From NCBI GenBank assembly GCA_024692905.1, contig JAILLY010000066.1, positions 2,912 to 66,911 on the forward strand: a stretch of DNA of 64,000 nucleotides, in the 5' to 3' direction. The notes below the pieces were generated by a model that was not told the DNA's origin, made no database searches, and saw only the letters and a program-made list of their open reading frames with translations. This DNA is from Lachnospiraceae bacterium (GTDB lineage: Bacteria; Bacillota; Clostridia; Lachnospirales; Lachnospiraceae). The translations under genes were made by a program, and so were the position numbers. This document shows positions 5,997 to 61,810 of this stretch, piece by piece (position 1 is the stretch's first letter; each line of letters begins with the position of its first letter).

Positions 5997-5999
5997 CTA

Positions 6000-47136: not shown

Positions 47137-47799
47137 CTATTTCTTCCTGTGATCGATCCCGGAAGCCACCTTCATTCCGAGATTCTGTATGATCTGGAAT
47201 ATGATTATGAGCAATGCTACGGTCACGAGCATTATATCCGTCTTCCATCTGTAATAACCGTAACGTACGGCTATATCACCAAGACCGCCTCCGCCGACGG
47301 TACCCGACATTGCCGAATATCCCAGCAGCACGCCCGTAGTGATCGTGGCGCCGGTAACCAGTGAAGTCTTTGCCTCCACAAGCAGTACCTTCAATATTAT
47401 CTGCATATTGCTTGCACCCATGGCCCTTGCGGCTTCGATAACTCCGGCATCGACTTCGTTGAGCGCCGATTCGACCATTCTTGCGATGTAGGGCGCGGCA
47501 CATACGACAAGGGGTACTATGGTAGCGGTGGAACCGTAACTCTGACCCACTAACGCCCTTGTGAACGGGATAAGGAGTATAAGCAGGATAAGGAAAGGGA
47601 TACTTCTTATTATATTGCAGAATATATCAAGGATCCTGTATATTATCCTGTTTGGCTTAAGGCCGCCGCTCCTTGTGACATTCAGGACAACGCCAAGAGG
47701 CAGTCCGACCGCATATCCCATAAGCGCGGAAACAAGAGTCATATACAGCGTGTCCCTTATACCTTCAAGCAGCATTTCTATTATCTTCTGATCAAACAC
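47137..47799 (-). CDS. metI: Methionine ABC transporter permease
   Basis: 220 aa MetI-like (EAARAMGAS...). Overlaps the metN stop. Confidence 0.85.
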   Translation of the reverse strand: MFDQKIIEMLLEGIRDTLYMTLVSALMGYAVGLPLGVVLNVTRSGGLKPNRIIYRILDIFCNIIRSIPFLILLILLIPFTRALVGQSYGSTATIVPLVVCAAPYIARMVESALNEVDAGVIEAARAMGASNMQIILKVLLVEAKTSLVTGATITTGVLLGYSAMSGTVGGGGLGDIAVRYGYYRWKTDIMLVTVALLIIIFQIIQNLGMKVASGIDHRKK

Positions 47800-48805
47800 C
47801 TTCCCTCACCTCCGTCACGGAAAGTCCCCTCTCCTTAAGATACGCGATTATATGATTCTGGATATCCTCATCATCCGGCAGTCCCAAAAGGATCTCACCC
47901 TTGGCCTTGCCGCCGACGTTCCTCGTATCGGCGCCGAGGATGTTTACCGGAGCGTTGAATTTAAGTATGACGTTGGATATCACGGGTTCGAATGCAGAGT
48001 TTTCGGAAAAGACTATCCTTATCACACGCTCCGACTTAAGGCTGTCTATCGGCGAATACCTGCTCTTTTTGTTTGCGATAAGCTCCCTGGCCACATCCGT
48101 CTTCGGTGAAGCAAATATCTCCTCAACCAGTCCCTCCTCAACAAGACGGCCGTTCTCGATTATCGCAACCTTGCTGCAGATATCGGTGATGACGGACATC
48201 TGATGAGTTATGACCACGATCGTGATATTCAGTTTCTCGTTTATCTCCTTAAGAAGAGAAAGGATCGACTCTGTGGTCTGGGGATCGAGCGCACTCGTTG
48301 CCTCATCACACAGAAGTATATCCGGATTTGTCGCAAGTGCTCTTGCTATCGCTACACGCTGCTTCTGTCCGCCCGAAAGCTGTGACGGGTATGACTTTTC
48401 CTTATCGGAAAGATTGACCGTATCAAGCAGCTCCCTTGCCTTCTCCCTTGCCTTTTTCTTCGGCATCCCGGATATCTCAAGAGGAAAGCAGACATTATCG
48501 ATCACGTTCTTCTGCTCAAGCAGATTGAAACCCTGAAAGATCATGCCTATATCCCTTCGTTTTATCCTGAGTTCCTTTTCCGAAAGCTTTGAGAGATCGG
48601 TACCGCCTATGAGTACACGGCCTTCATTTGGTACCTCAAGATAATTGATCGAGCGGACCAGCGTACTCTTGCCGGCCCCGGACATACCTATTATCCCGTA
48701 TATCTCACCCTTTTCGATACTGAGGCTGACATCATTAAGCGCAACGATCTCATGGCCTCCCGCTTCAAACCTTTTGGTCAGGTTCTTGATCTCTATCTCA
48801 CTCAT
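47792..48805 (-). CDS. metN: Methionine ABC transporter ATP-binding protein with C-terminal NIL domain
   Basis: GMSGAGKST, LSGGQKQRV, LLCDE, plus a NIL-type C-terminus (VIRIVFSENS...ILGADTRNVGG). Confidence 0.9.
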   Translation of the reverse strand: MSEIEIKNLTKRFEAGGHEIVALNDVSLSIEKGEIYGIIGMSGAGKSTLVRSINYLEVPNEGRVLIGGTDLSKLSEKELRIKRRDIGMIFQGFNLLEQKNVIDNVCFPLEISGMPKKKAREKARELLDTVNLSDKEKSYPSQLSGGQKQRVAIARALATNPDILLCDEATSALDPQTTESILSLLKEINEKLNITIVVITHQMSVITDICSKVAIIENGRLVEEGLVEEIFASPKTDVARELIANKKSRYSPIDSLKSERVIRIVFSENSAFEPVISNVILKFNAPVNILGADTRNVGGKAKGEILLGLPDDEDIQNHIIAYLKERGLSVTEVREGV

Positions 48806-48843
48806 ATTAAACTCCTGCCGTTCATATTAAAATTTCAATCCCC

Positions 48844-48871
48844 ATTATACACGAAAAGCATGGATTGTGAA
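48844..48871 (-). promoter_or_regulatory. Candidate internal promoter ahead of metN
   Basis: Minus strand TTCACA (48871-48866), 16 nt spacer, TATAAT (48849-48844). Confidence 0.4.
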
Positions 48872-48881
48872 CCCGGCCCGG

Positions 48882-48913
48882 AAAAATATCCGGGAGGGCT
48901 TATGCCCTCCCGG
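48882..48913 (-). terminator. Intra-operon terminator/attenuating hairpin after the fused SBP gene
   Basis: Minus strand CCGGGAGGGC-ataa-GCCCTCCCGG (10-bp stem) then ATATTTTT. It starts 8 nt after the SBP stop. Confidence 0.7.
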
Positions 48914-48920
48914 GAGATAT

Positions 48921-50609
48921 TTAACCTTCAAAGAATACCACTGCTCCGTCATAAGTGTCTTCGATGAACTTCTTGATGTCATCAGACCTTAATACCTTGA
49001 CGAGAGCCTGGATCTTTGCATCATTCTCATGTCCCTCGTATACCGCGATGATATTAACGTAGGTCTTGGCCGCGACCGAATCCGTTGCCTCATAAGCTAT
49101 GGAATCATGTCCTACGGAATATCCTGCCTCAAGAGCATAGTTTCCGTTGAGTACAACGTATGAAACCTCACTGACGACCCTTGCGACCTGAGCCGCTTCA
49201 AGCTCGACAAACTTGATCTCATAGGGATTTTCGGTGATGTCGTTAACCGTGGCGGTAAGTCCGGCACCGTCCTTTAACGTAAGCAGTCCGTTGTCCTGAA
49301 GAAGAAGGAGTGCCCTTGCCTCATTGGTGGTATCATTGGGGATCGCTATCGTATCACCCTTTGCGATCTCATCGAGAGTCTTCTTGGTACCGGGATAGAT
49401 ACCGAAGGGTTCGTAATGGATATCGCCGGCATCGACAAGATGGGTTCCCTGCTCCTCATTGAAGCTGTTAAGATAAGGTACATGCTCTACATAGTTTGCA
49501 TCAAATTCACCTGATTCAACTACAAGGTTAGGCTGAACATAATCTTCAAACTCAGTTATCTCAAGCTTGTATCCGTGCTGTTCAAGAATCTTTGCTGCTT
49601 CTTCAAGTATCTCCGCATGAGGTATGGGAGAAGCGGCGATCTTTATAACCTCACCGTTTCCGTCCGGAATGTCGAGATCGGAAGCGGCTCCCGTTGAAAC
49701 AGGTGCGGCAACGACAGCGGTGTCTCCGCCTCCCTCAACTACGAGCGTATCCTCATAATCCTTTCCGTAGGTGTCGATAAGAGTGGCCTCATAATCCGCA
49801 TGGAAGAAATTCTCGTTTCCGAGTGCCTTTATCTCATCATTAAGCCAGTCAAGAAGTGTGCTGTTTCCTTTGCTTACGGCGGGAGCTATCGTATCCTGGC
49901 TTCCGAGTGAAGGGATGCCGACAACATATCCCTCGTTCTCAAGCGAATAAGCTATGACCTCTGTATTGTCGTTTGCCCATGCAACGCCTGTTCCGTTCTC
50001 AAACGATGTTTTTGCGGTTGCATATGTATCAAACTTCTGAAGCTTTATCTCCGGGTTGTTCTTCTCAAGATACGTCTCGGCCGTGGTTCCGGATATAACG
50101 ATCACCTGTTCATCGGCACCTATCTGATCAAGGCTCTCGATCACATGATCCTCATGCGAAACGACTCCGAGTGCAACATTCATATAAGGAAGGGCAAAGT
50201 CAACCTTCTCGGCCCTTTCTTCCGTTACCGTGAAGTTTGCAAGTATTATATCGACCTTGCCTGTCTCAAGATATTCAACCCTGCTTGCAGCCTCGGTTGA
50301 AACATAATTGATCTTAACTCCCAGATCCTTTCCTATCCTTTCGGCAAAGTATACGTCATATCCCTGATACTGTCCGTTCTCATCCACATATCCGAACGGA
50401 TTCTTATCGGAAAATACTCCGATGTTGATCTCACCGCTTGCCTTGATCTCATCAAGCGTCCTGTAGATCCTGTTTGCATCGTTCGTTGTTTCAGGGGCCG
50501 TACTCTGGACGGGAGCCGCTGCGCCTGCTGCGCACCCTGCGAGAAGTCCTCCGGTGAGTACTGCAGCCAGTGCTGTCCTTAACACATTCCTAAGTAGTTT
50601 TTTCTTCAT
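48921..50609 (-). CDS. Fused two-domain substrate-binding lipoprotein: SBP_bac_3 (polar amino acid/cystine-type) N-half plus MetQ/NlpA (methionine) C-half
   Basis: Lipobox LLAGC. Residues about 50-290 resemble family-3 amino-acid SBPs (GEINIGVFSDKNPFGYVDENGQYQGYDV...). Residues about 320-562 resemble MetQ (KIAASPIPHAEILE..., IAIPNDTTNEARALLLL). Confidence 0.8.
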   Translation of the reverse strand: MKKKLLRNVLRTALAAVLTGGLLAGCAAGAAAPVQSTAPETTNDANRIYRTLDEIKASGEINIGVFSDKNPFGYVDENGQYQGYDVYFAERIGKDLGVKINYVSTEAASRVEYLETGKVDIILANFTVTEERAEKVDFALPYMNVALGVVSHEDHVIESLDQIGADEQVIVISGTTAETYLEKNNPEIKLQKFDTYATAKTSFENGTGVAWANDNTEVIAYSLENEGYVVGIPSLGSQDTIAPAVSKGNSTLLDWLNDEIKALGNENFFHADYEATLIDTYGKDYEDTLVVEGGGDTAVVAAPVSTGAASDLDIPDGNGEVIKIAASPIPHAEILEEAAKILEQHGYKLEITEFEDYVQPNLVVESGEFDANYVEHVPYLNSFNEEQGTHLVDAGDIHYEPFGIYPGTKKTLDEIAKGDTIAIPNDTTNEARALLLLQDNGLLTLKDGAGLTATVNDITENPYEIKFVELEAAQVARVVSEVSYVVLNGNYALEAGYSVGHDSIAYEATDSVAAKTYVNIIAVYEGHENDAKIQALVKVLRSDDIKKFIEDTYDGAVVFFEG

Positions 50610-50698
50610 AATATTTCCCTCTTTTCTTTTATGATATATTGTTTCTTTCCGTATCGTTACTGTTACATTTATCTCCGAGTCCTTTATGTCCCGGCATC

Positions 50699-50724
50699 AA
50701 AAAAGCCCGGGATCTCTCCCGGGC
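50699..50724 (-). terminator. Attenuator terminator in the transporter-operon leader
   Basis: Minus strand GCCCGGGA-gaga-TCCCGGGC (8-bp stem) followed by TTTTTT. The 5' arm plus loop (GCCCGGGAGA) is a perfect 10-nt complement of TCTCCCGGGC (50795-50786) inside the leader ORF. Confidence 0.8.
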
Positions 50725-50736
50725 TCAGACTCGATC

Positions 50737-50850
50737 TTAACAGTGTGCATGACACGGAAGCCATACACGCCTAAGCCTTACATCAGCCCGGGAGAATAGC
50801 ATTCGACACATACACATCATACAACAGCCATTCATATATAAGCTTCTCAT
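50737..50850 (-). CDS. Cys/Met-rich leader peptide, 37 aa (MRSLYMNGCCMMCMCRMLFSRADVRLRRVWLPCHAHC)
   Basis: AAGGAGG lies 7 nt upstream of the ATG. Eight of nine consecutive codons (9-17) are Cys or Met. It shares the C-R-M-x-x-S-R core and CGAATGC...CTCCCGGG nucleotides with the metY leader ORF. Confidence 0.65.
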   Translation of the reverse strand: MRSLYMNGCCMMCMCRMLFSRADVRLRRVWLPCHAHC

Positions 50851-50880
50851 TGTCCTGCCTCCTTTCGATTCAATGGTAAT

Positions 50881-50920
50881 AAAATACACCCTAATTCCTA
50901 CTGTGTCAATAGGTTTTTAA
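50881..50920 (-). promoter_or_regulatory. Transporter-operon promoter with conserved operator-like box (copy 2 of 3)
   Basis: Minus strand TTAAAAACCTATTGACACAGTAGG (50920-50897). TTGACA (50909-50904), 17 nt spacer, TATTTT (50886-50881). Confidence 0.65.
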
Positions 50921-50927
50921 AAAAATT

Positions 50928-51179
50928 TTAATCCCCTACCTTTTTAATGTATAACTCAAACGTTCCGTCCTCATTATCAACGAGCTTAAGTACCTCGTGG
51001 CCCTCCTCCTTAACGCTCCTTGGCACGTTATTGACCGGTTCACCGTCATTTAAGTGGACCTGAAGTACCTGACCCTCATCAAGCTCATCAAGAGCGACCT
51101 TGGTCTTTACAAAGGTCACGGGACAGTTCACATCCGTAATATCAACAGTATCATCAACTTTAATATCTATCTCAGCCAT
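50928..51179 (-). CDS. TusA/SirA-like sulfurtransferase
   Basis: 83 aa from ATG 51179 (AAGGAGG 5 nt upstream). Conserved Cys in VNCPVTF and a two-layer alpha/beta pattern typical of TusA. Confidence 0.7.
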   Translation of the reverse strand: MAEIDIKVDDTVDITDVNCPVTFVKTKVALDELDEGQVLQVHLNDGEPVNNVPRSVKEEGHEVLKLVDNEDGTFELYIKKVGD

Positions 51180-51223
51180 TTTTTCCTCCTTTTGCGGGTC
51201 CCCGCAAAATACTTGTTTTATCA

Positions 51224-51652
51224 TCAGATCACGATCAGCTCTTCTTTTCGTACAGTCTTCTCTCCTTCTGCTTTCTCAATATGAAATGCATTAAGAACGG
51301 GGTTTTCTTCCTCCATGAGCGAAAGGATCAGATAACTCGCGCTGCTGTCATTGGCCAGCCGCTTATCTTCCTCTGACGGACGCGAGGGTGACGCCGGATG
51401 GGAGTGCCAGTTTCCGAGCGGTTTAAGGGCTCTTGCTCTCATATCCTTTACCGCATTGAGCTGTTCATGCGGATCGATCGTAAAATGCTCGCTGGTATGA
51501 TCGGTATTTGTCAGTATGTATACCTTACATATTTCCCGCACGCCATCCCTGCGATCGACTCCCGCTATCAGTCCGCAGGCTTCGTTCGGGCTTTCCTTAA
51601 GAGAGTGTTCATATATCATTTCAAAATCGCTGCGCTTTATCGTTATCTTCAT
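51224..51652 (-). CDS. JAMM/MPN+ metalloprotease (Mov34 family), copy 2
   Basis: NEACG glutamate motif and HSHPASPSRPSEED (HxHx7Sx2D). Start at ATG 51652 with GGAG upstream. Confidence 0.85.
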   Translation of the reverse strand: MKITIKRSDFEMIYEHSLKESPNEACGLIAGVDRRDGVREICKVYILTNTDHTSEHFTIDPHEQLNAVKDMRARALKPLGNWHSHPASPSRPSEEDKRLANDSSASYLILSLMEEENPVLNAFHIEKAEGEKTVRKEELIVI

Positions 51653-51706
51653 ATATTCTCCGTTCAACTATCATATGTGGTTCCAGCAGCAGCATCCAAA
51701 GAAAGA

Positions 51707-52522
51707 TCATTTGGACTGCTTCAGTTCACACTCCGCCTGCTCATAATCGATAAGCTCCGTTATCGTCGGTTCATCCGAACATACGGCACATCCCTTTCCG
51801 CGGGGAGGAAGCTTTATCTTATGAAATTCCATCTTAAGCGCATCATAAGTCAGCAGGTATCCCGAAAGCAGTTCGCCCGTACCCGTTATATACTTTACCG
51901 CCTCCATTGCCTGAAGCGAACCGATCACGCCGCCCATGGCTCCGATGACTCCGGCCTGTTTGCAGGTTGGGACCGCATCCTTTGGGGGCGGATTCTTAAA
52001 TATACATCTGTAGCAGGGGCTCTCGCCGGGGATTATCGTGGTGAGCTGCCCCTTGAACCGTATGATGCCGGCATGTGATAAGGGCTTTTTTTCCATCACA
52101 CATGCATCGTTGATAAGAAATTTTGCGGGGAAATTATCTGTCCCGTCCAGGATAAAATCATAATCCCTTATAAGCTCGCGTATGTTTGTACTGTTAACGA
52201 ACTGATAATAGGTATTCACAATCACATCCGGATTGATCGCACGCATGGTCTCTGCGGCTGATTCTACCTTCTTCTTCCCTATATCGGGTGTCGTATGTAT
52301 GACCTGCCTCTGAAGATTGGACAGATCGACAACATCTGCATCCGCTATGCCTATGGTTCCCACGCCGGCAGCGGCAAGATAAAGTGCGGCCGGTGCTCCG
52401 AGTCCTCCGGCACCTATTATGAGGACTTTTGCATTGAGCAGTTTTTTCTGCCCTTTTACGCCGATCTCCTTTAATATGATATGTCTTGAGTAACGCTCCA
52501 GCTGTTCATTTGTAAAAGCCAT
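51707..52522 (-). CDS. ThiF/MoeB/HesA-family E1-like adenylyltransferase
   Basis: RYSRHIIL..., GAGGLGAPAALYLAAAGVG nucleotide loop, CYRC and CAVC zinc pairs. TAATG overlap with the ThiS-like gene. Confidence 0.88.
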   Translation of the reverse strand: MAFTNEQLERYSRHIILKEIGVKGQKKLLNAKVLIIGAGGLGAPAALYLAAAGVGTIGIADADVVDLSNLQRQVIHTTPDIGKKKVESAAETMRAINPDVIVNTYYQFVNSTNIRELIRDYDFILDGTDNFPAKFLINDACVMEKKPLSHAGIIRFKGQLTTIIPGESPCYRCIFKNPPPKDAVPTCKQAGVIGAMGGVIGSLQAMEAVKYITGTGELLSGYLLTYDALKMEFHKIKLPPRGKGCAVCSDEPTITELIDYEQAECELKQSK

Positions 52523-52731
52523 TAAAGCCTTCCTCCTCCCATGAAGTATAAGAATTCGACCTCATCACCTTCGTTAAGAGCATGACTGTCAAAACTGCCT
52601 TTATCGATGAACTCCTCATTTACCGATACAGTCACATATTCCGGAGTTTCCACGTTTTCCTGCTCAATAAGCGCAGCGACCGTGATCCCGTCCGCAACTT
52701 CTTTTTTCTCTCCAGCTATAGTGATCTTCAT
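52522..52731 (-). CDS. ThiS/MoaD-like ubiquitin-fold sulfur-carrier protein with C-terminal extension (…FMGGGRL)
   Basis: 69 aa with a beta-grasp pattern (MKITIAGEKKEV...GDEVEFLYFMGG). The diglycine is followed by 2-3 extra residues. Strong RBS AGGAGGG. Confidence 0.8.
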   Translation of the reverse strand: MKITIAGEKKEVADGITVAALIEQENVETPEYVTVSVNEEFIDKGSFDSHALNEGDEVEFLYFMGGGRL

Positions 52732-52759
52732 GATCTTCCCTCCTGTAGTGTTTATTCTC

Positions 52760-53770
52760 TTAAATTATGTAGTACCACTCATCGCTCTGGCTTAATTCTT
52801 CACTTCTTATCTCGTTTTTGTCTGTCCGGTATTCCATCTCAAGATTCTTCATGCTGACCCTTGTGTTCGCATCGATGGAACAGGTGATGAATGCATTTCC
52901 TCCAATGACGGCATTCTCACCGATGACAGTCTCTCCTCCGAGGATTGATGCACCGGCATAGATCGTAACGTTATCGCATATGGTCGGATGTCTTTTCCTG
53001 CCGGAAAGTCTCTGCCCGCCTCTTGTGGAAAGAGCTCCTATCGTGACACCCTGATAAATCTTGACATTTCTGCCTATGACCGCCGTCTCGCCTATAACTA
53101 TCCCCGTACCGTGATCTATGAAGAAATATTTATCGATGGCCGCCCCCGGATGTATGTCTATGCCCGTCTTACTGTGCGCATATTCCGTCATGAGTCTCGG
53201 AAGAACGGGCACCTGTTCAAGATACAGCTCATGGGCCAGCCTGTACACCGTGATCGCCATCAGGCCGGGATATGCAAGAATGATCTCTTCATAACATCCC
53301 GCTGCCGGGTCCCCGTCATAAGCAGCCGAAAGATCCGTCTCTATATACTCACGTATCTTTGGTATCCTGGCAAAGAATGCCTTGCAGATACGGTAACTTT
53401 CCCGCTTCCTTTCATCATCGGTAAGGGTTCCCCTTTTTCTGCAGTAATCAAGGGCCAGATACACCTGTTTGCTCAGATGATAAAATATATCCTCGATGAT
53501 GACGGCAAAACTGTTCCTTGGATTATATATCTTGTAAGAGCGGTCCCTGAAATAACCCGGAAATATTATCCTGAAAAGATTTCTTATAAGTTCATGAACC
53601 TCTGCTTTGTCAGGTTTGTTATATATATTGACCTCATCGATATGTTTTTTTCCTTCAAAATCCTCAAATATGTTTTTGACGATAAGATCTATCTCTTCTT
53701 CCCTTATTATCTCATTCACCGGTATTCTCCTTATATCCTCATGTACTGCCGGATCCATCCGGCAGCACAT
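52760..53770 (-). CDS. Serine O-acetyltransferase, long form (about 150-aa N-terminal domain), encapsulin-operon associated
   Basis: C-terminal hexapeptide SAT core (GIDIHPGAAIDKYFFIDHGTGIVIGETAVIG). 336 aa. The N-terminus reads MCCRM. Confidence 0.85.
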   Translation of the reverse strand: MCCRMDPAVHEDIRRIPVNEIIREEEIDLIVKNIFEDFEGKKHIDEVNIYNKPDKAEVHELIRNLFRIIFPGYFRDRSYKIYNPRNSFAVIIEDIFYHLSKQVYLALDYCRKRGTLTDDERKRESYRICKAFFARIPKIREYIETDLSAAYDGDPAAGCYEEIILAYPGLMAITVYRLAHELYLEQVPVLPRLMTEYAHSKTGIDIHPGAAIDKYFFIDHGTGIVIGETAVIGRNVKIYQGVTIGALSTRGGQRLSGRKRHPTICDNVTIYAGASILGGETVIGENAVIGGNAFITCSIDANTRVSMKNLEMEYRTDKNEIRSEELSQSDEWYYII

Positions 53771-53782
53771 GAAGGCATTACT

Positions 53783-55504
53783 TTAAGCAAATGTCTTTAA
53801 TACTTTAACCAGTGCATCAATGTCATCCGGAGAATTATAAAGCGCGATAGTCGGCCTTACCGAACTTTCATATCCGAAACGGCGCAGAACCGGCTGCGCA
53901 CAGTGATGTCCCGTGCGAACAGCTATCCCGTAGCTGTCAAGCCTCTTTCCGACCTCTTCATCCGAATATCCGTCAAGCTTGAATGACAATGCCGATGACT
54001 TGTTGAGTGCGGTCCCTATAAGATGAAGTCCCTTTACCATTTTCATCTCTTTCATGGCATATGTTAAAAGTTCATGCTCCCAGCGGTAAACGCAGGGCAT
54101 GCCGATATCGGTAAGATAGGAAAGCGCCGCGCCAAGACCGACAGCATCGGCTATGCTTCCCGTTCCGGCTTCGAATTTGTTCGGGGCGGGATTATATATC
54201 GTCCTTTCAAAAGTCACATCCGCGATCATATTTCCGCCGCCGTGATAAGGCCTGGCTGCCTCGAGCAGTTCCTTCTTTCCGTAAACCGCTCCTATGCCCG
54301 TCGGAGCAAAGATCTTATGTCCGGAGAATACAAAGAAATCCGCATCAAGCGCCGATACATTCACCGGTATATGTGCCACCGACTGGGCTCCGTCAATGAG
54401 TATGCGTACTCCGTGCCTGTGTGCGATTGCAATGAGCTCCTCAACCGGAGTGACTGTTCCAAGCACATTGGACACATGGGTCACCGCAACAAATCTGGTC
54501 CGCTTTGTGAAAAGCTTCTCATACTCATGAAGTATGAGCTGACCGGTCTCATCGCAGGGTATAACCTTTATCACCGCACCCGTTTCCTGGGCTATCAGCT
54601 GCCAGGGAACTATGTTCGCATGGTGTTCAAGGATCGAGACGATGATCTCGTCTCCGGGTTCGAGCATCGGCTTTACATAAGCATTTGCCACGAGGTTTAT
54701 ACCTTCGGTCGTGCCTCGCACGAAGATGATCTCATCAGATGAAGGCGCACCGATAAAATCGCGCACGATATCCCTTGCTTTTTCGTATGCATCCGTCGAT
54801 CTTGCCGCCAGAGTATGGGCACCCCTGTGCACATTGCTGTTCTCATGCCCATAATAATACGAGAGTCTGTCTATAACGGCCTTTGGACGCTGCGTGGTCG
54901 CTCCGTTATCGAGCCATATCAGCGGATTGCCGTTTATCTGCTCTTTGAGGATTGGAAAATCATCCCTGATCTGGGCAAGCGACTTGCTGCCTATCCTTAT
55001 CTGGTCGTTCCTCGACGAAGCGGGGGCTGCCTTTGAGGCATCGCCGCTGACACTGTCACCTCCAAGCGATGTGGGGACATCTATCCTGCGGCCTTTTTCA
55101 TACGCCTGCGCCTGAGACATGACTGTCGGGGAATAACTCACGCTCTTTTCACCGGTAAGCACGGGTATATCCCCCATACCGGGGATCATTTCCGCCTCCG
55201 GAGCACTTACCGCCTCAACCGTCTGAAGATACTGATCGGTGTATCCCCCGCCGTAAGCGAAAGGGTGCTCCCAATCAAACGGTTCTGTCACCGGTGTGCT
55301 CAAGCCCGGGATTTCTCCGGCCGTTCCGGCATACGTGCCGGTCGAAGGTATATTCACTTCGGGAACGGATGCTGCCGGTATATCTGTCTCGGGAATACCG
55401 TATACACCTTCCGTAAGATCCGGAAACATCTCATTTGCAAGAATACTGAGTTCTCCCGCGCTTAAGATGCCGTCAGGATTATCAATCGTAATCATAATAT
55501 TCAC
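53783..55504 (-). CDS. SufS/CsdA-type cysteine desulfurase with about 170-aa disordered N-terminal extension (predicted encapsulin cargo)
   Basis: The catalytic part has HHANIVPWQ, SGHK (PLP lysine) and RTGHHCAQP (active-site Cys). The ORF-track start is GTG 55504 and an ATG at 55495 is also possible. It overlaps the encapsulin 3' end. Confidence 0.88.
   Translation of the reverse strand: MNIMITIDNPDGILSAGELSILANEMFPDLTEGVYGIPETDIPAASVPEVNIPSTGTYAGTAGEIPGLSTPVTEPFDWEHPFAYGGGYTDQYLQTVEAVSAPEAEMIPGMGDIPVLTGEKSVSYSPTVMSQAQAYEKGRRIDVPTSLGGDSVSGDASKAAPASSRNDQIRIGSKSLAQIRDDFPILKEQINGNPLIWLDNGATTQRPKAVIDRLSYYYGHENSNVHRGAHTLAARSTDAYEKARDIVRDFIGAPSSDEIIFVRGTTEGINLVANAYVKPMLEPGDEIIVSILEHHANIVPWQLIAQETGAVIKVIPCDETGQLILHEYEKLFTKRTRFVAVTHVSNVLGTVTPVEELIAIAHRHGVRILIDGAQSVAHIPVNVSALDADFFVFSGHKIFAPTGIGAVYGKKELLEAARPYHGGGNMIADVTFERTIYNPAPNKFEAGTGSIADAVGLGAALSYLTDIGMPCVYRWEHELLTYAMKEMKMVKGLHLIGTALNKSSALSFKLDGYSDEEVGKRLDSYGIAVRTGHHCAQPVLRRFGYESSVRPTIALYNSPDDIDALVKVLKTFA
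54995..55504 (-). other. Predicted intrinsically disordered cargo-loading domain of the desulfurase
   Basis: Low-complexity Pro/Gly/Ser/Thr-rich region. It contains GELSILANEMFPDL, which resembles the LARLANEFF-type loading motif reported for family 2A encapsulin cargo. Confidence 0.55.
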
Positions 55505-56438
55505 CTACTTCTACATCCTCAAGCACCGCTATCGCATCATCCGCAAGTATCGCAGCCGAGCAGTACAGAGATAATAAGTAAGATGCCACTCCCTTATCAT
55601 CGATGCCTCTGAAACGCACCGACAGTCCTCTTGAATGTTCGTTCTTGAGTCCTGCCTGGAATAATCCGACAACACCCCTCTTTGCTTCACCCGTACGGAT
55701 GAGAAGGATGTTGGTCTTTCCGCTTTCGGACTTGGGATTCTTAAGTCCGTCAACCAGGAGCTTGTCCGTAGGGATCACAGGGATCCCCCTCCATGTAAGG
55801 AAGTTTCCTCCTGCAATGTTTACAACTACAGGCGGTACACCCCTCTTCGTGCACTCTCTCTCAAATGCTGCGATAGCCCTGGGGTGAGCAAGGAAAAATG
55901 AGGGCTCCTTCCATACCTTGGTTATGAGTTCATCAAGATCATCGGGCGTAGGTGCACCGTTGCGTGTCTGGATCCTCTGGGAATCAGGCACGTTCTTCAA
56001 AAGGCCGTAATCATCATTATTGATCAGCTGGCTCTCCTGACGCTCCCTTAAAGACTCGATCGCAAGTCCGAGCTGCTCCTGGACCTGATCGTAGGGTACA
56101 CTGTAAACATCCTCCACGGATGTGTTCACATTGATGATCGTTGAGATCGAATTAAGGACATATTCGCGGGGTTTCGTCTCATACTCAACATATCCCTGCG
56201 GAATTATGTCTGACTTTTTCGTCTGGGAGCAGAGCACGTCGAGCGGGGTTTCGCCTTCAACCACCCTGTTCACCCTGTAGATACCGGTCTCCAGCCCCTT
56301 GAACTCAAGGAATTTGGTGAGCCATCTGGGGGTGAGTGCTCCAAACTGGGGCTTGGTCTTGGTAATGTTCGCAAGATTATAGGCCGCCTGAGAATCAAGC
56401 GCGTTGATCCCCTCTTTCTTAACTGTTTCGTTTGCCAT
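55482..56438 (-). CDS. Family 2A encapsulin shell protein (SrpI-like, HK97 fold)
   Basis: 318 aa from ATG 56438 (GGAGG 7 nt upstream). Motifs I recall from SrpI-type shells: LTPRWLTKFL, GIYRVNRV, KPREYVLNSISTIINV, ERQESQLIN, TRNGAPTPDDLDELITKVWKEPSFFLAHPRAIAAFERECTKRGVPP, LLSLYCSAAILADDAIAVL. No cNMP-binding insertion. Confidence 0.8.
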   Translation of the reverse strand: MANETVKKEGINALDSQAAYNLANITKTKPQFGALTPRWLTKFLEFKGLETGIYRVNRVVEGETPLDVLCSQTKKSDIIPQGYVEYETKPREYVLNSISTIINVNTSVEDVYSVPYDQVQEQLGLAIESLRERQESQLINNDDYGLLKNVPDSQRIQTRNGAPTPDDLDELITKVWKEPSFFLAHPRAIAAFERECTKRGVPPVVVNIAGGNFLTWRGIPVIPTDKLLVDGLKNPKSESGKTNILLIRTGEAKRGVVGLFQAGLKNEHSRGLSVRFRGIDDKGVASYLLSLYCSAAILADDAIAVLEDVEVGEYYDYD

Positions 56439-56518
56439 TTCAGTTCCTCCTGTCTTATGATTGATCATTTTCTATTAGATAGTCTGCTCCTGACAGACGT
56501 ATCCATCGTAAATATATA

Positions 56519-57976
56519 TCAGAGCCATGCGCCCTCGTGCGAAAACATGATATCCTTCATCGCCTCTATACCGCCCTTTAAGTTGTACATCGGGCCGTTA
56601 TACCCCGCTTCCCTTAACGTATTGATCGCGAGGATGCTTCGTTTGCCCTCCCTGCAGACAAAGACCGTATCCTTATCCGGATCAAGTTCATCCTTTCTCC
56701 TTGCAAGCTGGCCTATCGGGATCACTATCGCATCCGGGAAACGCATTATCGAGCGCTCGTGCGGTTCACGTACATCGATTATGGTCATGGGATCCTTGTC
56801 CTCTATTCGCCTGGCGAGTTCCTCCGGAGTGAATCCTTCGACAGGGATCTCATCTTCCGCAGTTTTAAGATGGCAGAATTCCTCGTAATCAAAATCCTCA
56901 ACCCTGAATATCGAGGGATCTGCCCCGCATATCGGACACTTACGGTCCTTCTTCACCTTAACGATCCTGGATCCGAGATACAGGCTGTCGATCGTAAGCA
57001 GCCTGCCGTCAAGATGTTCTCCTATCCCGATGATCAGTTTAAGTGCTTCATTTGCTGCGATGCTCCCGATGATTCCGGGCAACGGACTTATCGTGCCGCC
57101 CTCCGCACATGTCGGGACAAGCCCCGGCTCAGGCGGTTCGGGAAACAGGCATCTTAAACAGGGACCTCCGTTAAGATTGAAGATGCCGACCCTGCCTTCA
57201 TACTGGTATATCGCCCCGAATACCAGGGGTATGCCCAGAAGTGCACAGGCATCGTTTATAAGATATCTGGACCTGTGATCGCCGGTGCAGTCTATCACAA
57301 GATCGTAGCCGTCGATCATGGATACTATGTTGTCGGCATTGATCCTTTCATTCTCCGATTCAAAATTTATGTTCCTGTTGGTGTTCCTGACTGTATCCCG
57401 TGCCGATGCCACCCTGGGACGCTTAACATCACGGGCACTGTGTATTACCTGACTCTGAAGGTCTTCAAGAGAAACATCATTATCATCGACCACTTTTATC
57501 GTTCCGACACCTGCTGCCGCAAGATACTGGATAACGGGCGAACCCAGCGCCCCCGCCCCCATGACAACGACTCTTGACGCTTTGATCCTCTTCTGGCCCT
57601 TGACTCCTATCTCTCTTAGCAGAAGATGTTTGCCGAAACGTTCAACCTCCTGATCGTCAAGACCGACTTCCTTCCTCCGTTCATCCGGTATGAGATTATC
57701 CGAAGGCGCACCTCCTGCGATCGACGGTAGCAGGAGTACCTCATCATCGGGTTTTAGTTTTCTGTACCACTGATCGGGTTCACTCCTGTCCTCATCCCCG
57801 ACATATAACCTTATAAAGCTGTTAAGTCCTCCGTCTGCATTGAATATCACCTTTTTTGAATCCGGATATTCATCGGTCAGGAAATTGAGGATACTTTTAA
57901 TATCATCCCCCGAAACTTCCACGAAACTGTTCCTTCCGAAAAATCCCCTTAAAGTAGCCGATATATAAACCTTCAT
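56519..57976 (-). CDS. Triple fusion: MoaD/ThiS-like Ubl domain (ends ...LLLPSIAGG) plus ThiF/MoeB E1 adenylyltransferase plus C-terminal rhodanese
   Basis: Residues 1-92 show a beta-grasp pattern with a diglycine at the junction. E1 core GAGALGSPVIQYLAAAGVG with CLRC/CPIC. Rhodanese active loop VCREGKRS. Confidence 0.85.
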   Translation of the reverse strand: MKVYISATLRGFFGRNSFVEVSGDDIKSILNFLTDEYPDSKKVIFNADGGLNSFIRLYVGDEDRSEPDQWYRKLKPDDEVLLLPSIAGGAPSDNLIPDERRKEVGLDDQEVERFGKHLLLREIGVKGQKRIKASRVVVMGAGALGSPVIQYLAAAGVGTIKVVDDNDVSLEDLQSQVIHSARDVKRPRVASARDTVRNTNRNINFESENERINADNIVSMIDGYDLVIDCTGDHRSRYLINDACALLGIPLVFGAIYQYEGRVGIFNLNGGPCLRCLFPEPPEPGLVPTCAEGGTISPLPGIIGSIAANEALKLIIGIGEHLDGRLLTIDSLYLGSRIVKVKKDRKCPICGADPSIFRVEDFDYEEFCHLKTAEDEIPVEGFTPEELARRIEDKDPMTIIDVREPHERSIMRFPDAIVIPIGQLARRKDELDPDKDTVFVCREGKRSILAINTLREAGYNGPMYNLKGGIEAMKDIMFSHEGAWL

Positions 57977-58432
57977 TTACTTCTGTCCTCCAATTATGAT
58001 CACCGGCCGCACCGCCTTTGTACAGGTATCCTGTCCGGACTTATCCGGGAGCATTCTTATATAACCGGCCGTCTCCGTACAGCCCTTCTCATCCACCGAT
58101 ACGATCACATATATCAAACCGGGTACAGCATGCTTAATATCTTCATCCGAGCATATTGCGGGCTTGTCCGGATGTGAATGATAAAAGCCAAGCAGATCCA
58201 TCCCGGCTGTTTCCGCCTCGTTCTCTATCTGCCGGAGCTGACCGGCATCTATGCGGTAGCCCTCAGCCGCACTTATTCCGGAAAGTGTATTCCGAGCGGG
58301 CCTTACCATATTAATCCGCCGTGTGTCCTTATACCCAAGCAGTGCTCCGCATCCCTCGCAGGGATATGCACGGCTTAAATGCTCTCTCATGAGTTCATAT
58401 TCATCATTGTCAAACCAAACAACATCTTCCAT
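57977..58432 (-). CDS. JAMM/MPN+ metalloprotease (Mov34 family), copy 1
   Basis: PCEGCG glutamate motif and HSHPDKPAICSDED (HxHx7Sx2D). Confidence 0.85.
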   Translation of the reverse strand: MEDVVWFDNDEYELMREHLSRAYPCEGCGALLGYKDTRRINMVRPARNTLSGISAAEGYRIDAGQLRQIENEAETAGMDLLGFYHSHPDKPAICSDEDIKHAVPGLIYVIVSVDEKGCTETAGYIRMLPDKSGQDTCTKAVRPVIIIGGQK

Positions 58433-58451
58433 ATGATACCGTCAATGGCCT

Positions 58452-59684
58452 CTACCGGGAGACCGACTTTACAGCCTGCACAAAATCTTCCACCAGATCC
58501 TCTGCATCCTCTATGCCCACACTGACCCTTACGGTATCTTCATATACACCTGCTGCATTCATCTCTTCCACGGCTGTCTTATTGTACAGTGTCGATGCGG
58601 GATGTATGACCAGCGTACGAAGATCGCCGATGTTACTTGCTATCATCGCATATTTCAGCGAATCGATGATCTTAAATGCCCTTTCCTTAGACCCGGCCCG
58701 GAAGCTTAATATACCGCCCCCAAGGCCTCTGAGTTCCTCTTTGGCGATCTTATTGTACGGATGATCCGGGAGAGTCAGATAATTGACCTTAATCCCTTCA
58801 ATCTCATAAAGTGCACGGGCAAGTTTATCGGCGTTATCACAGATCCTTTCCATCCTAAGTCCGAGCGTATCGGTTCCTATATAGTTAAGGAATGCGTTCA
58901 TCGGGGCCATGCAGCCGCCGATATTCTCCCATATATCGTTACGAAGCCTTACGGAAAAGGCCATCGGTCCGTATTTCTTATAATCCGAAAGTGCAGTATG
59001 CTTATCCGCATCCCACTTAAACTTACCGCCGTCGACTATGATGCCGCCGATCGAATTACCTCCCCCGTTTAAATATTTGGAAGTCGAATGAATGACTGCA
59101 TCCGCCCCCATCGACAGAGACCTGGCCAGATATGGGGTTGCCGTCGTTGCGTCCACAAAAAGCGGGATCCCGGCTTCATGGGCCGCCGCAGCCGTCCCGG
59201 CCACATCCATGACTTTCAGTGAGGGATTGGCGATCAGCTCACCGAATACCACCTTAGTCCTTTCGTTTATGAACGGCCTTATCGAGTCGCCGTTCATCTC
59301 AGCGGTATAAACGGTATGGATACCAAGCTTTTCAAGATCATGTAACAGTTCTATTGTCCCACCGTACAGACCGCTGCAGGTTATTATCTCATCACCGCTT
59401 CCACATACCGCAAGCAATGCAGACGCGATGGCAGACATCCCGCTGCTGCAGCAGACAGCACCCACGCCTCCTTCAAGTTCGCTTATCCTCTGCTCGAAGG
59501 CGGCTATCGTAGGATTTCCGATGCGCGTATATGCATACCCCATGCTCTTATGTGCAAAAACCTTCTCAAGTTCCTCCATACTCTCGTACCTGAAAGCACT
59601 GACCTGAGAGATGGGCGGGAGCATCTCACGCGATGCATATCCCCGGGATGTTTTTCCGTGTAAAAGCTTCGTATTAAACTGCAT
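58452..59684 (-). CDS. O-acetylhomoserine/O-acetylserine sulfhydrylase-like PLP enzyme (second MetY/CGS-family paralogue)
   Basis: 410 aa, Cys/Met-metabolism PLP family (HSTSKYLNGGGNS contains the PLP lysine). Confidence 0.85.
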   Translation of the reverse strand: MQFNTKLLHGKTSRGYASREMLPPISQVSAFRYESMEELEKVFAHKSMGYAYTRIGNPTIAAFEQRISELEGGVGAVCCSSGMSAIASALLAVCGSGDEIITCSGLYGGTIELLHDLEKLGIHTVYTAEMNGDSIRPFINERTKVVFGELIANPSLKVMDVAGTAAAAHEAGIPLFVDATTATPYLARSLSMGADAVIHSTSKYLNGGGNSIGGIIVDGGKFKWDADKHTALSDYKKYGPMAFSVRLRNDIWENIGGCMAPMNAFLNYIGTDTLGLRMERICDNADKLARALYEIEGIKVNYLTLPDHPYNKIAKEELRGLGGGILSFRAGSKERAFKIIDSLKYAMIASNIGDLRTLVIHPASTLYNKTAVEEMNAAGVYEDTVRVSVGIEDAEDLVEDFVQAVKSVSR

Positions 59685-59695
59685 TTTTGATCCCT

Positions 59696-60076
59696 TTACC
59701 CGTTTGATCTCTTCTTTTCATAATCATTAAGCGCCGACTGTATGGCTTCCTCCGCAAGGACCGAGCAGTGCATCTTATAATCCGGAAGTCCGTCCAGCGC
59801 CTCCGCCACTGCCTTGTTCGTAAGCTTCATCGCTTCACTCACGGGCTGCCCCTTTATAAGTTCGGTCGCCATAGAACTTGATGCTATGGCACTTCCGCAT
59901 CCGAAGGTCTCAAACTTCACATCCTTTATGATGTCGTCCTCGATCTTTAAATACATCTTCATAATGTCGCCGCATCTTGCATTCCCGACTTCTCCGATGC
60001 CGTCCGCATCTTCTATGACTCCGACATTTCTAGGATTGCGAAAATGATCCATTACTTTTTCACTGTATAAAGCCAT
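59696..60076 (-). CDS. iscU: Fe-S cluster assembly scaffold IscU/NifU-N
   Basis: 126 aa with the three conserved Cys in GNARCGD, FGCGSAIASS and MHCSVLA. Confidence 0.93.
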   Translation of the reverse strand: MALYSEKVMDHFRNPRNVGVIEDADGIGEVGNARCGDIMKMYLKIEDDIIKDVKFETFGCGSAIASSSMATELIKGQPVSEAMKLTNKAVAEALDGLPDYKMHCSVLAEEAIQSALNDYEKKRSNG

Positions 60077-60097
60077 GATCCTTCCTCCAAATTCTTC

Positions 60098-61282
60098 CTA
60101 TAAAATATGCTGTTTCTTTCCCGACTCAAGATCACGCCAGATAGGCGAGAAGCTCCTTAAATACTCAACCACTTCTCTTACCGACGAAATGATAAAGTCA
60201 ACATCCTTATCACTTATATCCTCTCCTATACTGAGTCTTAAAGACCCGTGCGCCACATCATGTACCCTGCCTATCGCAAGGAGCACATGGGAAGGATCAA
60301 GCGATCCGGATGTACATGCGCTTCCGGATGATGCCTGTATCCCTTTATCATCAAGCAGGAGCAGGAGTGACTCTCCCTCTATACCCTCAAAACAAAAATT
60401 CACGTTCGAAGGCAGTCTCTTCTTTTCGTCGCCGTTTAGCGCAGAGTGCGGTATCTCCCTTAATCCCTTTATCAGGCGGTCACGCTTTTTTATGAGTTCC
60501 CCCGATGTTTTATCCATTCCCGCAGCAGCTTCCTTAAGGGCCTTTGCCATGGCTGCGATCGCCGGAACGTTCTCCGTACCCGCACGAAGCCCCCTCTCCT
60601 GGGCGCCGCCTTCTATCAGATTTGTAAGTCTTATGCCCTTTTTCGCATAAAGGAAACCGACACCTTTGGGGCCGTGGAACTTATGGCCCGATGCCGAAAG
60701 AAGATCGATGTTGTCATCCACGACATTTACCGGGATATGTCCCACAGCCTGTACGGCATCAGTATGGAAGAGGACCTTCTTTTCCCTGCAGATCACTCCT
60801 ATCTCCCTTATGGGCTGGATCGTTCCGATCTCATTATTTGCATACATTATCGTAACAAGGCAGGTATCGTCCCTTATCGCCTCTCCGACCTCGGAAGGGA
60901 TAAGGAGTCCGTTCTCATGCACATCAACAAGTGTTATCTCAAAGCCTTCCTTCTTAAGCTTATTAAGGGTGTGAAGTACCGCATGGTGCTCAAATGCAGA
61001 AGATACTATATGAAGCTTTCCGTTCTTTTTTCCAAGAGCGGCTGCCGAAAGGATCGCCTGGTTATCTGCCTCGCTCCCGCCGGAGGTGAATAATATCTCC
61101 CGTCTGCCGGCTCCTATCACACCTGCTATATCCTCTCTTGCTTCCTCGAGGATCTCCCTGGCTCTCTGTCCGAAGCCGTATAAGCTCGACGGATTACCAT
61201 AGTTTTCCTTCATTACCGATATCATTGTCTTCATTGCCGTCTCACTCATTCTGGTGGTCGCGGCATTATCTGCATATATCAC
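60098..61282 (-). CDS. iscS: Cysteine desulfurase NifS/IscS (class I)
   Basis: 394 aa with SGHKFHGPKG (PLP lysine) and SSGSACTSG active-site loop. GTG start 5 nt after GGAGGTG. Confidence 0.93.
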   Translation of the reverse strand: MIYADNAATTRMSETAMKTMISVMKENYGNPSSLYGFGQRAREILEEAREDIAGVIGAGRREILFTSGGSEADNQAILSAAALGKKNGKLHIVSSAFEHHAVLHTLNKLKKEGFEITLVDVHENGLLIPSEVGEAIRDDTCLVTIMYANNEIGTIQPIREIGVICREKKVLFHTDAVQAVGHIPVNVVDDNIDLLSASGHKFHGPKGVGFLYAKKGIRLTNLIEGGAQERGLRAGTENVPAIAAMAKALKEAAAGMDKTSGELIKKRDRLIKGLREIPHSALNGDEKKRLPSNVNFCFEGIEGESLLLLLDDKGIQASSGSACTSGSLDPSHVLLAIGRVHDVAHGSLRLSIGEDISDKDVDFIISSVREVVEYLRSFSPIWRDLESGKKQHIL

Positions 61283-61309
61283 GTTATCACCTCCAGGTTA
61301 ATTGACTGT

Positions 61310-61351
61310 ATTATAACGACTACTTACCTACCATGTCAATAGGTTTTTTAA
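61310..61351 (-). promoter_or_regulatory. Promoter of the sulfur operon with conserved operator-like box (copy 3 of 3)
   Basis: Minus strand TTAAAAAACCTATTGACATGGTAGG (61351-61327). TTGACA (61339-61334), 18 nt spacer, TATAAT (61315-61310). Confidence 0.65.
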
Positions 61352-61359
61352 AAAGGGAC

Positions 61360-61389
61360 TTGATTTACCCATTAACCCTGCGGTATAAT
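61360..61389 (+). promoter_or_regulatory. Candidate promoter of the Rrf2 regulator gene
   Basis: TTGATT (61360-61365), 18 nt spacer, TATAAT (61384-61389). It directly abuts the conserved box. Confidence 0.5.
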
Positions 61390-61414
61390 AGGCAAAAATC
61401 AAAGGAGAAGAAAA

Positions 61415-61810
61415 ATGATCTCTACACGCGGAAGATACGCGATACGCGTTATGATAGACCTTGCCCAGAATCAGGACGAGCACTATATACCCCTTAAGGA
61501 CATAGCGGCAAGGCAGGAAATATCCAAAAAATATCTCGAGATAATAGTTAAGGATATGGTGGCCGGAGGACTCTTAAAGGGTGCCAGCGGCAAGGGCGGC
61601 GGATACAAGCTGTGCCGTGCGCCGGAAGAATATAATATAGGTGAGATAATCGAACTGATGGAGGGCACTCTTTCATCGGTTGCATGTCTTGCCGACAAGA
61701 CCAACGTCTGCCCGAGGAGAAAGTCCTGCCAGACACTTCCCATGTGGGAGGAATATGATAAGATGGTGCACGATTTCTTCTACGGGAAAAAGTTAAGTGA
61801 CCTTATCTAA
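61415..61810 (+). CDS. Rrf2-family transcriptional regulator (IscR/CymR-like) with three-Cys putative Fe-S ligands
   Basis: MISTRGRYAIRVMIDLA... is a winged-helix Rrf2 N-terminus. Cys triad in CLADKTNVCPRRKSC. Divergent from iscS. Confidence 0.88.
   Translation: MISTRGRYAIRVMIDLAQNQDEHYIPLKDIAARQEISKKYLEIIVKDMVAGGLLKGASGKGGGYKLCRAPEEYNIGEIIELMEGTLSSVACLADKTNVCPRRKSCQTLPMWEEYDKMVHDFFYGKKLSDLI

Follow-up and report, generated by a model that had tools for sequence, protein, structure and literature searches.

Does a pair of overlapping genes in a Lachnospiraceae bacterium (contig JAILLY010000066.1) encode a protein compartment that is loaded with a cysteine desulfurase, and, if so, where would the sulfur released inside it go? 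The pair occupies positions 53783 to 56438 on the minus strand of a window of 64,000 nt, which is the whole stretch of DNA analyzed here and in whose numbering all coordinates are given. A first-pass annotation, made from the DNA sequence alone, had read the two genes as the shell and the cargo of a family 2A encapsulin. On the evidence of profile matches and a structural model, we consider it very probable that the two genes constitute a family 2A (SrpI-type) encapsulin system. Judging from conserved gene order, we infer that this pair forms the center of a single sulfur operon.

Identification of the shell gene

The shell open reading frame (ORF) extends from 55482 to 56468 on the minus strand and encodes 328 aa when counted from its first ATG. 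A second ATG at 56438 is preceded at a distance of 6 nt by the Shine-Dalgarno sequence GGAGGA. Because of this site, and because homologues range from 315 to 319 aa in length, the 318-aa form (55482..56438) was taken to be the correct call. The 318-aa gene is confirmed as a family 2A (SrpI-type) encapsulin shell.

Translations were searched against the Pfam and NCBIfam/TIGR profile sets and, using phmmer, against PDB sequences. The shell scored 491.5 bits against NF041162, the NCBIfam equivalog model for family 2A shells (cut-off 380, E = 7e-148), and 317.9 bits against the SrpI-like Pfam family PF19307 (cut-off 22.8, E = 4.5e-95). Its translation contains all of the motifs on which the first-pass annotation had relied, namely TPRWL, GIYRVN, ERQESQLIN, TRNGAPTPDDLDEL and WKEPSFFLAHPRAIAAFERECTKRGVPP. 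Full-length phmmer matches were obtained with 8t6r_A (E = 6e-114), 6x8m_A (E = 2e-109) and mycobacterial major membrane protein I (Mmp1), and a global alignment with native SrpI gave 56% identity; similarity to SrpI and to the family 2 profiles had been anticipated. The absence of a cNMP-binding insertion was also borne out, as the protein is colinear with the 306-aa SrpI and gave no cNMP domain match in the Pfam scan.

A structural model of the shell was built with AlphaFold (AF2) using an alignment of 59 sequences spanning families 2A and 2B. This model has a predicted local distance difference test (pLDDT) value of 85.3 and a predicted template modeling (TM) score of 0.79. A model derived from a shallow alignment (28 close homologues that are 84 to 93% identical) reached a pLDDT of only 33 and was discarded. 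When the retained model was compared with known structures using Foldseek, matches were found to 8T6R (TM 0.87/0.91), to 6X8M (TM 0.85/0.97, rmsd 1.2 Å) and to 8WOL, in agreement with the HK97 fold expected for the protein. Family 2B shells ranked after the family 2A shells, and HK97-type phage capsids (6 to 16% identity) came after these.

Residues of SrpI were also mapped onto the shell, for which the 328-aa numbering is used. The five-fold pore residues G194 and P196 (G210 and P212 here) and the putative cargo-contact residues F262 and Y273 (F286 and Y297) are all identical, and the pore loop K/R-R-G-V-P-P is conserved. Two positions, R192 (K208) and R304 (D326), are not identical; both were already described as poorly conserved by the authors of the SrpI study (PMC8049743). 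The shell carries an 8-residue insertion, VDGLKNPK, at approximately residues 229 to 237, which is absent from SrpI and from 8T6R. This insertion is present in 28 rumen-clade sequences, where most of its positions are invariant, and is modeled with low confidence. No recorded gene product proved identical when the 328-aa ORF, which is 10 residues longer at its N-terminus than the probable protein, was looked up by exact sequence. The closest homologues listed are 93% identical.

The desulfurase cargo and its predicted loading domain

The gene that overlaps the 3' end of the shell gene encodes a SufS-type cysteine desulfurase, as had been proposed. Its ORF (53783..55504, minus strand) comprises 573 aa when read from the first in-frame GTG at 55504. 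An ATG at 55495 with the sequence AGGTG 6 nt upstream appears to be the more likely start. A gene beginning at this codon (53783..55495) overlaps the shell gene by 14 nt, including the shell stop codon. Gene pairs of Azospirillum, Heliophilum, Pelotomaculum and Anaerosinus show the same 14-nt overlap, either in their annotation or by gene calling, and the arrangement indicates that the shell and cargo genes are translationally coupled. A database protein of 997 aa from outside the window (P0264) has a family 2A shell domain at residues 14 to 318, which points either to a natural fusion of shell and cargo or to an error of gene calling at this usual overlap.

The cargo scored 532.6 bits against TIGR01979 (SufS; cut-off 475.1) and 453.8 bits against PF00266, and its best PDB match is the desulfurase 8kg1 (E = 4e-163). 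Both the SGHK motif containing the pyridoxal phosphate (PLP) lysine and the RTGHHCA motif containing the catalytic cysteine are found in the translation. Residues 165 to 571 match positions 216 to 622 of NF041166, the model for family 2A cargo, with E = 1e-232. Given this value and that of the shell against NF041162, a chance match is excluded.

The region upstream of the family-model match is assigned as a disordered cargo-loading domain of approximately 160 residues (55013..55495, minus strand) on the basis of composition and the lack of a domain match. The first-pass annotation had described about 170 low-complexity residues here, and the N-terminal ∼160 to 175 residues are indeed rich in P, G, S, T, A and E and gave no Pfam or NCBIfam match. 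Among 77 orthologous cargos extracted from related loci, this domain is between 86 and 272 aa long, and conservation is confined to short motifs. The conserved blocks are M-x-T-M-T-T, LAN-x-x-F, FDWEHPFA and GYSPxVxSxxQA.

The putative shell-binding motif LSILANEMF (55424..55450, minus strand; residues 19 to 27 of the 573-aa ORF) aligns with IARLANEFF of the Acinetobacter baumannii cargo and with IARLANQFF of the Azospirillum cargo. This block corresponds to the loading consensus LARLANEFFS of Nichols et al. (PMC8049743). A search of the 77 N-terminal domains with the pattern L..L[AST][NQ]..[FL] proved to be too strict, since it retrieved 50 of them and missed true instances. It was replaced by the core AN-x-x-[FLYWVM], which is present in 71 of the 77. 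Because the LAN motif aligns with known cargo motifs and recurs among orthologues, the earlier interpretation of the desulfurase as cargo is supported at the sequence level.

Organization of the surrounding genes

Twelve genes are packed with gaps of 0 to 80 nt on the minus strand between 61282 and 50928. Their order is nifS, iscU, O-acetylhomoserine (OAH) sulfhydrylase, JAMM peptidase, a fusion of a ubiquitin-like protein (Ubl) with E1 and rhodanese domains, shell, desulfurase, serine O-acetyltransferase (SAT), thiS, thiF/moeB, a second JAMM peptidase and tusA. The first-pass annotation had correctly identified the shell, the cargo and the SAT of this neighborhood; it had missed the conserved Ubl, E1 and JAMM genes on both sides of them, as well as the ThiS-like ORF.

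Directly upstream of the shell is the gene for the 485-aa Ubl-E1-rhodanese fusion (56519..57976, minus strand). Residues 1 to 89 match NCBIfam models for SAMP1/MoaD, and the remaining domains match ThiF (232 bits; ThiF/MoeB-type E1) and Rhodanese (57 bits). An internal IAGG sequence (residues 85 to 88, at the end of the Ubl domain) and the rhodanese active-site residue Cys441 are conserved in 77 sequences. Because the Ubl precedes its own E1 within the fusion and the IAGG sequence is internal, the carrier would have to be excised before activation. The adjacent JAMM/MPN+ metallopeptidase (57977..58432, minus strand; Prok-JAB 66 bits) is the predicted protease for this cut, which would leave the Ubl with a free Gly-Gly terminus. 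A tblastn search of the window with the rhodanese domain of the fusion found no other. The accessory rhodanese of classical family 2A operons is represented here by the C-terminal domain of the fusion. This domain shows distant similarity (29% identity, E = 4e-7) to the rhodanese that stands alone in the srpI operon of Synechococcus elongatus.

The sulfhydrylase gene (58452..59684, minus strand) encodes a divergent O-acetylhomoserine/O-acetylserine sulfhydrylase paralogue that scored 336 bits against Cys_Met_Meta_PP and 388 bits against TIGR01326, which is below the cut-off of 495. A second, more canonical O-acetylhomoserine sulfhydrylase gene is located at 43376-44659 (minus strand; Cys_Met_Meta_PP 451 bits). 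At the upstream end of the operon are genes for a NifS-type desulfurase (60098-61282, minus strand) and an IscU scaffold (59696-60076, minus strand). Gene gaps in this region are 11 to 21 nt, and the same order is found in one related locus (L060). The names nifS and iscU were read from the translations of these genes.

Downstream of the cargo gene by 12 nt is the start of a gene for a long-form, EpsC-like SAT of 336 aa (52760..53770, minus strand); that a long-form SAT follows had been stated by the first-pass annotation. It matches TIGR01172 (cysE) with E = 3e-48 and scored 149.9 bits against the EpsC model NF041874, for which the cut-off is 150. A SAT of the same kind, with 38% identity to it, is encoded in the srpI operon of S. 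elongatus. What appears to be a gap between the SAT and thiF genes is filled by an ORF for a 69-aa ThiS-like sulfur carrier (52522..52731, minus strand; Pfam ThiS 53.3 bits, with the match extending to Gly67). This ORF abuts the following gene with an ATGA overlap. Because the carrier ends in GG-RL it would need trimming, presumably by the adjacent JAMM peptidase. The remaining genes encode a second E1-like adenylyltransferase of the ThiF/MoeB type that lacks a rhodanese domain (51707..52522, minus strand; ThiF 292 bits; 79 to 94% identical across loci), a second JAMM/MPN+ metallopeptidase (51224..51667, minus strand; Prok-JAB 85 bits), and a TusA/SirA-type sulfurtransferase in which the CP motif is present (50928..51224, minus strand; PF01206 74.9 bits).

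The ends of the operon were placed by pattern matching. A consensus sigma-70 promoter, TTGACA-18-TATAAT, with 12 of 12 positions matched, lies upstream of nifS (61310..61339, minus strand), and a terminator-like hairpin followed by a T-run lies downstream of tusA (50703..50726, minus strand). Divergently oriented beside the promoter is a gene for an Rrf2-family protein that resembles IscR or CymR (61415..61810, plus strand; Rrf2 109 bits), which is a candidate regulator of the operon. An Rrf2 gene also adjoins the operon in four other loci (L005, L019, L039 and L060), and one is found near srpI on the S. elongatus plasmid pANL (791-1225 of locus L081). The proximity of Rrf2 genes may reflect a recurrent regulatory link. 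In the nifS-rrf2 intergenic region, no inverted repeat fit for an Rrf2 operator was found. In the window, Rfam models applied at their gathering thresholds matched a single tRNA and neither a riboswitch nor a T-box.

Immediately downstream of the sulfur operon (47792-50609, minus strand) are two genes named, as were nifS and iscU, from their translations. One encodes a 562-aa lipoprotein that has a signal peptide-like N-terminus with a cysteine and seemingly two fused solute-binding domains, and the other an apparently MetN-like ABC ATPase with an ABC-type nucleotide-binding motif. Together these probably form an importer of sulfur amino acids, as judged from the sequences. Elsewhere in the window are a cysteinyl-tRNA synthetase gene (1737-3134, minus strand) and the tRNA noted above, a tRNA-Met with a CAT anticodon (5923-5997, plus strand). 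The rest is chromosomal housekeeping DNA that includes genes for RNase Y, RecA, riboflavin synthesis and a GGDEF-EAL protein. Two long ORFs, at 4433-5764 (443 aa) and 23993-25492 (499 aa), both on the minus strand, gave no Pfam match at E ≤ 1e-5.

Conservation of gene order and distribution

A scan of species-representative genomes found at least 548 relatives, and the best 80 loci were used for neighborhood work. Proteins from the window were run by tblastn against these 80 loci, and only contigs that reached far enough were counted for each position. The cargo gene lies directly downstream of the shell in 72 of 73 loci, and the Ubl-E1-rhodanese gene directly upstream of it in 73 of 74, most often with a gap of 30 to 170 nt. 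In 66 of 72 loci the E1 fusion is preceded by the JAMM gene. Less conserved are the SAT gene, which immediately follows the cargo gene in 53 of 68 loci, and the sulfhydrylase gene, which holds its upstream position in 41 of 68.

The best 80 are 84 to 93% identical. Rumen Lachnospiraceae supply most of them, including Pseudobutyrivibrio xylanivorans, Butyrivibrio and Hungate isolates AB2028, G41, XBB2008 and V9D3004. Oscillospiraceae, Fibrobacter succinogenes, Ruminobacter and Succinimonas are also represented. Pseudobutyrivibrio and other rumen Lachnospiraceae are the nearest relatives, and the host is therefore taken to be a strictly anaerobic bacterium of the Clostridia type, as the first-pass annotation had supposed. 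The rarity implied by that annotation was overstated. Hundreds of near-identical systems are present in public genomes, and proteins in Pseudobutyrivibrio, Lachnospiraceae and Clostridiales are already named “family 2A encapsulin nanocompartment shell protein” in RefSeq and GenBank by the NCBI pipeline. Annotated family 2A shells are also found in Paenibacillus, Heliophilum, Pelotomaculum, Anaerosinus and other Negativicutes. Published censuses list 1281 to 1462 family 2A desulfurase operons in 11 to 13 phyla, with a SAT and a rhodanese as typical accessories (PMC8346489, PMC10836720, PMC8049743). The system is an ordinary, automatically annotated member of a known family and is not rare.

The core of the operon is also found outside the rumen clade. 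Paenibacillus endoradicis has the order cysteine synthase, JAB, ThiS/ThiF/rhodanese, shell, desulfurase and SAT. Plasmid pACIB of Aliarcobacter cibarius carries the same core, disrupted by an insertion sequence, with a shell that is 70% identical. The pairs in Heliophilum, Pelotomaculum and Anaerosinus consist of shell and cargo alone, and coupling to the Ubl, E1 and JAMM genes is therefore not obligatory.

The whole operon is present in Fibrobacter (L048, L080 and L076), Ruminobacter (L073 and L078) and Succinimonas (L074), where shells are 87 to 91% identical and the GC content of the operon (45 to 55%) matches that of the host. Across all hosts the GC content of the operon follows that of the genome (28 to 55%), and shells within the rumen clade are 87 to 93% identical. 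Recent transfer, or contamination of metagenome-assembled genomes (MAGs), was considered as an explanation for the 87 to 91% identity and was not supported, given that GC content is host-like (40 to 55%), that the contigs are long, and that SrpI offers a parallel in being 77 to 80% identical to betaproteobacterial shells. The high identity across phyla instead points to strong constraint through purifying selection, combined with older transfers. In two MAGs, labeled Treponema (L022) and Bacteroides (L015), the operon is located on short contigs and could reflect binning errors.

Comparison with characterized systems

The first-pass annotation had listed a cyanobacterium, Acinetobacter and actinobacteria as the sources of characterized systems, and Synechococcus, Acinetobacter and mycobacteria are indeed the only sources of solved structures. 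The best shell match is the desulfurase encapsulin of A. baumannii 118362 (8T6R; PMC10836720), at 57% identity. Both systems combine a rhodanese, a SAT, a shell and a desulfurase. The rhodanese of A. baumannii, however, is small, stands alone and is marginally similar to the domain found here (E = 0.02). A. baumannii is aerobic, and it is for its compartment that storage of sulfur has been demonstrated.

The SrpI/CyD system of S. elongatus PCC 7942 (plasmid pANL; 6X8M, 6X8T; PMC8049743), with which the shell can be aligned over its whole length, likewise has a SufS-type cargo whose disordered N-terminus serves for loading. Its operon includes an EpsC-like SAT of the long form, and an Rrf2 gene is located nearby. 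The system differs in belonging to a cyanobacterium rather than to an anaerobic heterotroph and in being carried by a plasmid rather than the chromosome. The SAT gene is upstream there and downstream here, and the Lachnospiraceae operon has no CysK and no stand-alone rhodanese, its rhodanese being part of the Ubl-E1 fusion. The VDGLKNPK insertion, the change of R304 to aspartate and the diverged second cargo motif further set the present proteins apart from those of S. elongatus. Mycobacterial Mmp1 (8WOL, 8WON, 9KSL), from actinobacterial hosts, is a family 2A shell with 52 to 53% identity and TM 0.86/0.90.

The flanking genes have their counterparts elsewhere. Thiocarboxylate-dependent synthesis of cysteine or homocysteine has been characterized for CysO-CysM-Mec-MoeZ of Mycobacterium tuberculosis and for HcyS-HcyD-HcyF-MetY of Wolinella succinogenes. 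A related MetO/Mec/MoeZ/MetM route is cited in the literature. Iyer, Burroughs and Aravind (PMC1779556) described both types of Ubl/E1/JAMM module as sulfur-transfer operons and listed such systems as types 4b, 4c and 4e. The parts in common are a Ubl that ends in Gly-Gly, an E1 that may carry a rhodanese, a JAMM peptidase, a PLP-dependent sulfhydrylase and TusA/SirA. Unlike the described thiocarboxylate systems, the present operon includes an encapsulin and a putatively encapsulated desulfurase, and one of its Ubl domains precedes the cognate E1 in a single protein.

Discussion

By analogy with the homologous compartments, 60 copies of the HK97-fold shell protein would assemble into a T=1 shell of ∼24 nm. 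The desulfurase would be packaged by means of short N-terminal motifs, including LAN-x-x-F, that bind conserved patches on the shell interior. L-cysteine would enter through the five-fold pores and be converted to alanine and sulfane sulfur, and the latter may accumulate within the shell as elemental sulfur. In homologues, encapsulation has been found to depend on the N-terminal domain and to increase the reaction rate sevenfold (PMC8049743), and elemental sulfur is stored in the compartment (PMC10836720). Such a compartment should be compatible with life in the rumen, because desulfurase chemistry is redox-neutral and needs no oxygen. For the A. baumannii system, Benisch et al. noted that the route by which sulfur is remobilized is unknown and suggested a role for the rhodanese of the operon (PMC10836720). 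The follow-up study of rhodaneses left out those with multiple domains.

The genes that flank the shell and cargo suggest a destination for this sulfur, since a beta-grasp Ubl with a Gly-Gly end, an E1, a JAMM peptidase and a PLP-dependent sulfhydrylase, each recognized by its sequence features, are encoded together. We tentatively propose that the operon represents a subtype, absent from the encapsulin literature searched, in which the encapsulated desulfurase acts as the sulfur-mobilizing front end of a Ubl thiocarboxylate relay. The JAMM protease would first free the Ubl with its Gly-Gly end, and the E1 would then adenylate it. The rhodanese, carrying a persulfide charged from compartment sulfur, would convert the adenylated Ubl to a thiocarboxylate. 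The sulfhydrylase would finally combine the thiocarboxylate with O-acetylhomoserine to yield homocysteine, or with O-acetylserine supplied by the SAT to yield cysteine. The second module, consisting of ThiS, ThiF, JAMM and TusA, would form a parallel branch. Gene order thus suggests that compartment sulfur feeds a thiocarboxylate route to homocysteine or cysteine. In the literature searched, no paper joins an encapsulin with a thiocarboxylate, and a search for ThiF together with JAMM gave no encapsulin paper among the matches listed. Likewise, no paper was found that ties encapsulins to Lachnospiraceae in a relevant way, and a looser search combining encapsulins with rumen genera gave none among the matches listed.

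Several observations weigh against the proposed relay or the compartment that would feed it. Assembly, loading, sulfur storage and hand-over to the rhodanese are all inferred for these proteins. The cargo scored 774.6 bits against NF041166, narrowly under the curated cut-off of 800. This shortfall is attributed to its divergent disordered N-terminal domain, which does not match the model. The second published cargo motif, AASPYYFLDG, is represented here only by the diverged block GYSPxVxSxxQA. The scans that set the ends of the operon found no more promoter- or terminator-like sites than were found in shuffled sequence. Finally, shell and cargo occur without adjacent Ubl, E1 and JAMM genes in Heliophilum, Pelotomaculum and Anaerosinus, and the placement of a cysteine-consuming desulfurase beside genes for cysteine and homocysteine synthesis could reflect mere co-regulation of sulfur genes.

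This last point leads to the strongest alternative, to which we give almost even standing. The encapsulin would be genuine, and the Ubl, E1 and JAMM proteins, the sulfhydrylase and TusA would be neighbors in a co-regulated sulfur island with no direct hand-over between them and the compartment. On its own, the compartment would then serve as a cysteine buffer or a sulfur store, as proposed for A. baumannii. The three genera with isolated pairs favor such an arrangement, as do the operons of S. elongatus and Azospirillum, which have only a SAT, accompanied in some cases by CysK or a separate rhodanese, and the wide occurrence of both Ubl modules in the absence of encapsulins (PMC1779556). It accounts less well for the E1-rhodanese fusion, which adjoins the shell in all but one of the loci counted, at short distances, and which carries the only rhodanese domain found in the window. 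This adjacency persists over four phyla despite the drift of the DNA toward host GC content, and is seen again in Paenibacillus and Aliarcobacter, where the sulfhydrylase is a different one.

Two further readings, which dispute the encapsulin assignment itself, were considered and rejected. It is very improbable that the shell is of the nucleotide-regulated family 2B type, or that it packs another cargo encoded elsewhere, such as a terpene cyclase, a polyprenyl transferase or a xylulose kinase. The family 2B model NF041163 does match the shell at 382.7 bits, but this is below its cut-off of 400 and involves only the C-terminal HK97 part (model positions 207 to 449). The protein of 318 aa is colinear with SrpI and has no cNMP insertion, and the overlapping downstream gene encodes a desulfurase with a loading motif. 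That the gene is the major capsid gene of a remnant prophage, with an ordinary SufS for Fe-S assembly beside it, is less probable still, since phage capsids share the HK97-like fold and appear among the structural matches but do so at TM ∼0.5-0.65 and at far lower identity than family 2A shells (53 to 57%, TM 0.85-0.97), the shell exceeds the equivalog cut-off, no portal, terminase, protease or tail gene was seen among the ORFs scanned or read from 47792 to 62997, gene order is conserved in the chromosomes of many species, and the desulfurase has a loading domain and no sufBCD, sufE or sufU nearby.

The identification of the encapsulin alone adds little, because the family has been defined both structurally and bioinformatically and near-identical rumen proteins are labeled by the NCBI pipeline. 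The greater interest lies in the tentatively proposed thiocarboxylate relay. Among solved structures, as judged from PDB sequence and Foldseek matches, there is no family 2A shell of Firmicute origin and none from a strict anaerobe; the system could therefore be used to test sulfur storage without oxygen-linked stress. Cultured relatives exist for this purpose, including P. xylanivorans DSM 14809 (locus L014) and Paenibacillus species. If the relay operates as proposed, an encapsulin sulfur system would be shown to work in strict anaerobes, and the subtype would span Lachnospiraceae, Oscillospiraceae, Paenibacillus, Fibrobacter, Ruminobacter, Succinimonas and Aliarcobacter. The relay would provide both a route of remobilization and a destination for encapsulin-stored sulfur. 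The rhodanese-Ubl-E1 fusion, together with the JAMM peptidase and the sulfhydrylase, would then offer a concrete and testable answer to the question of remobilization that was left open by the Giessen laboratory in 2024.

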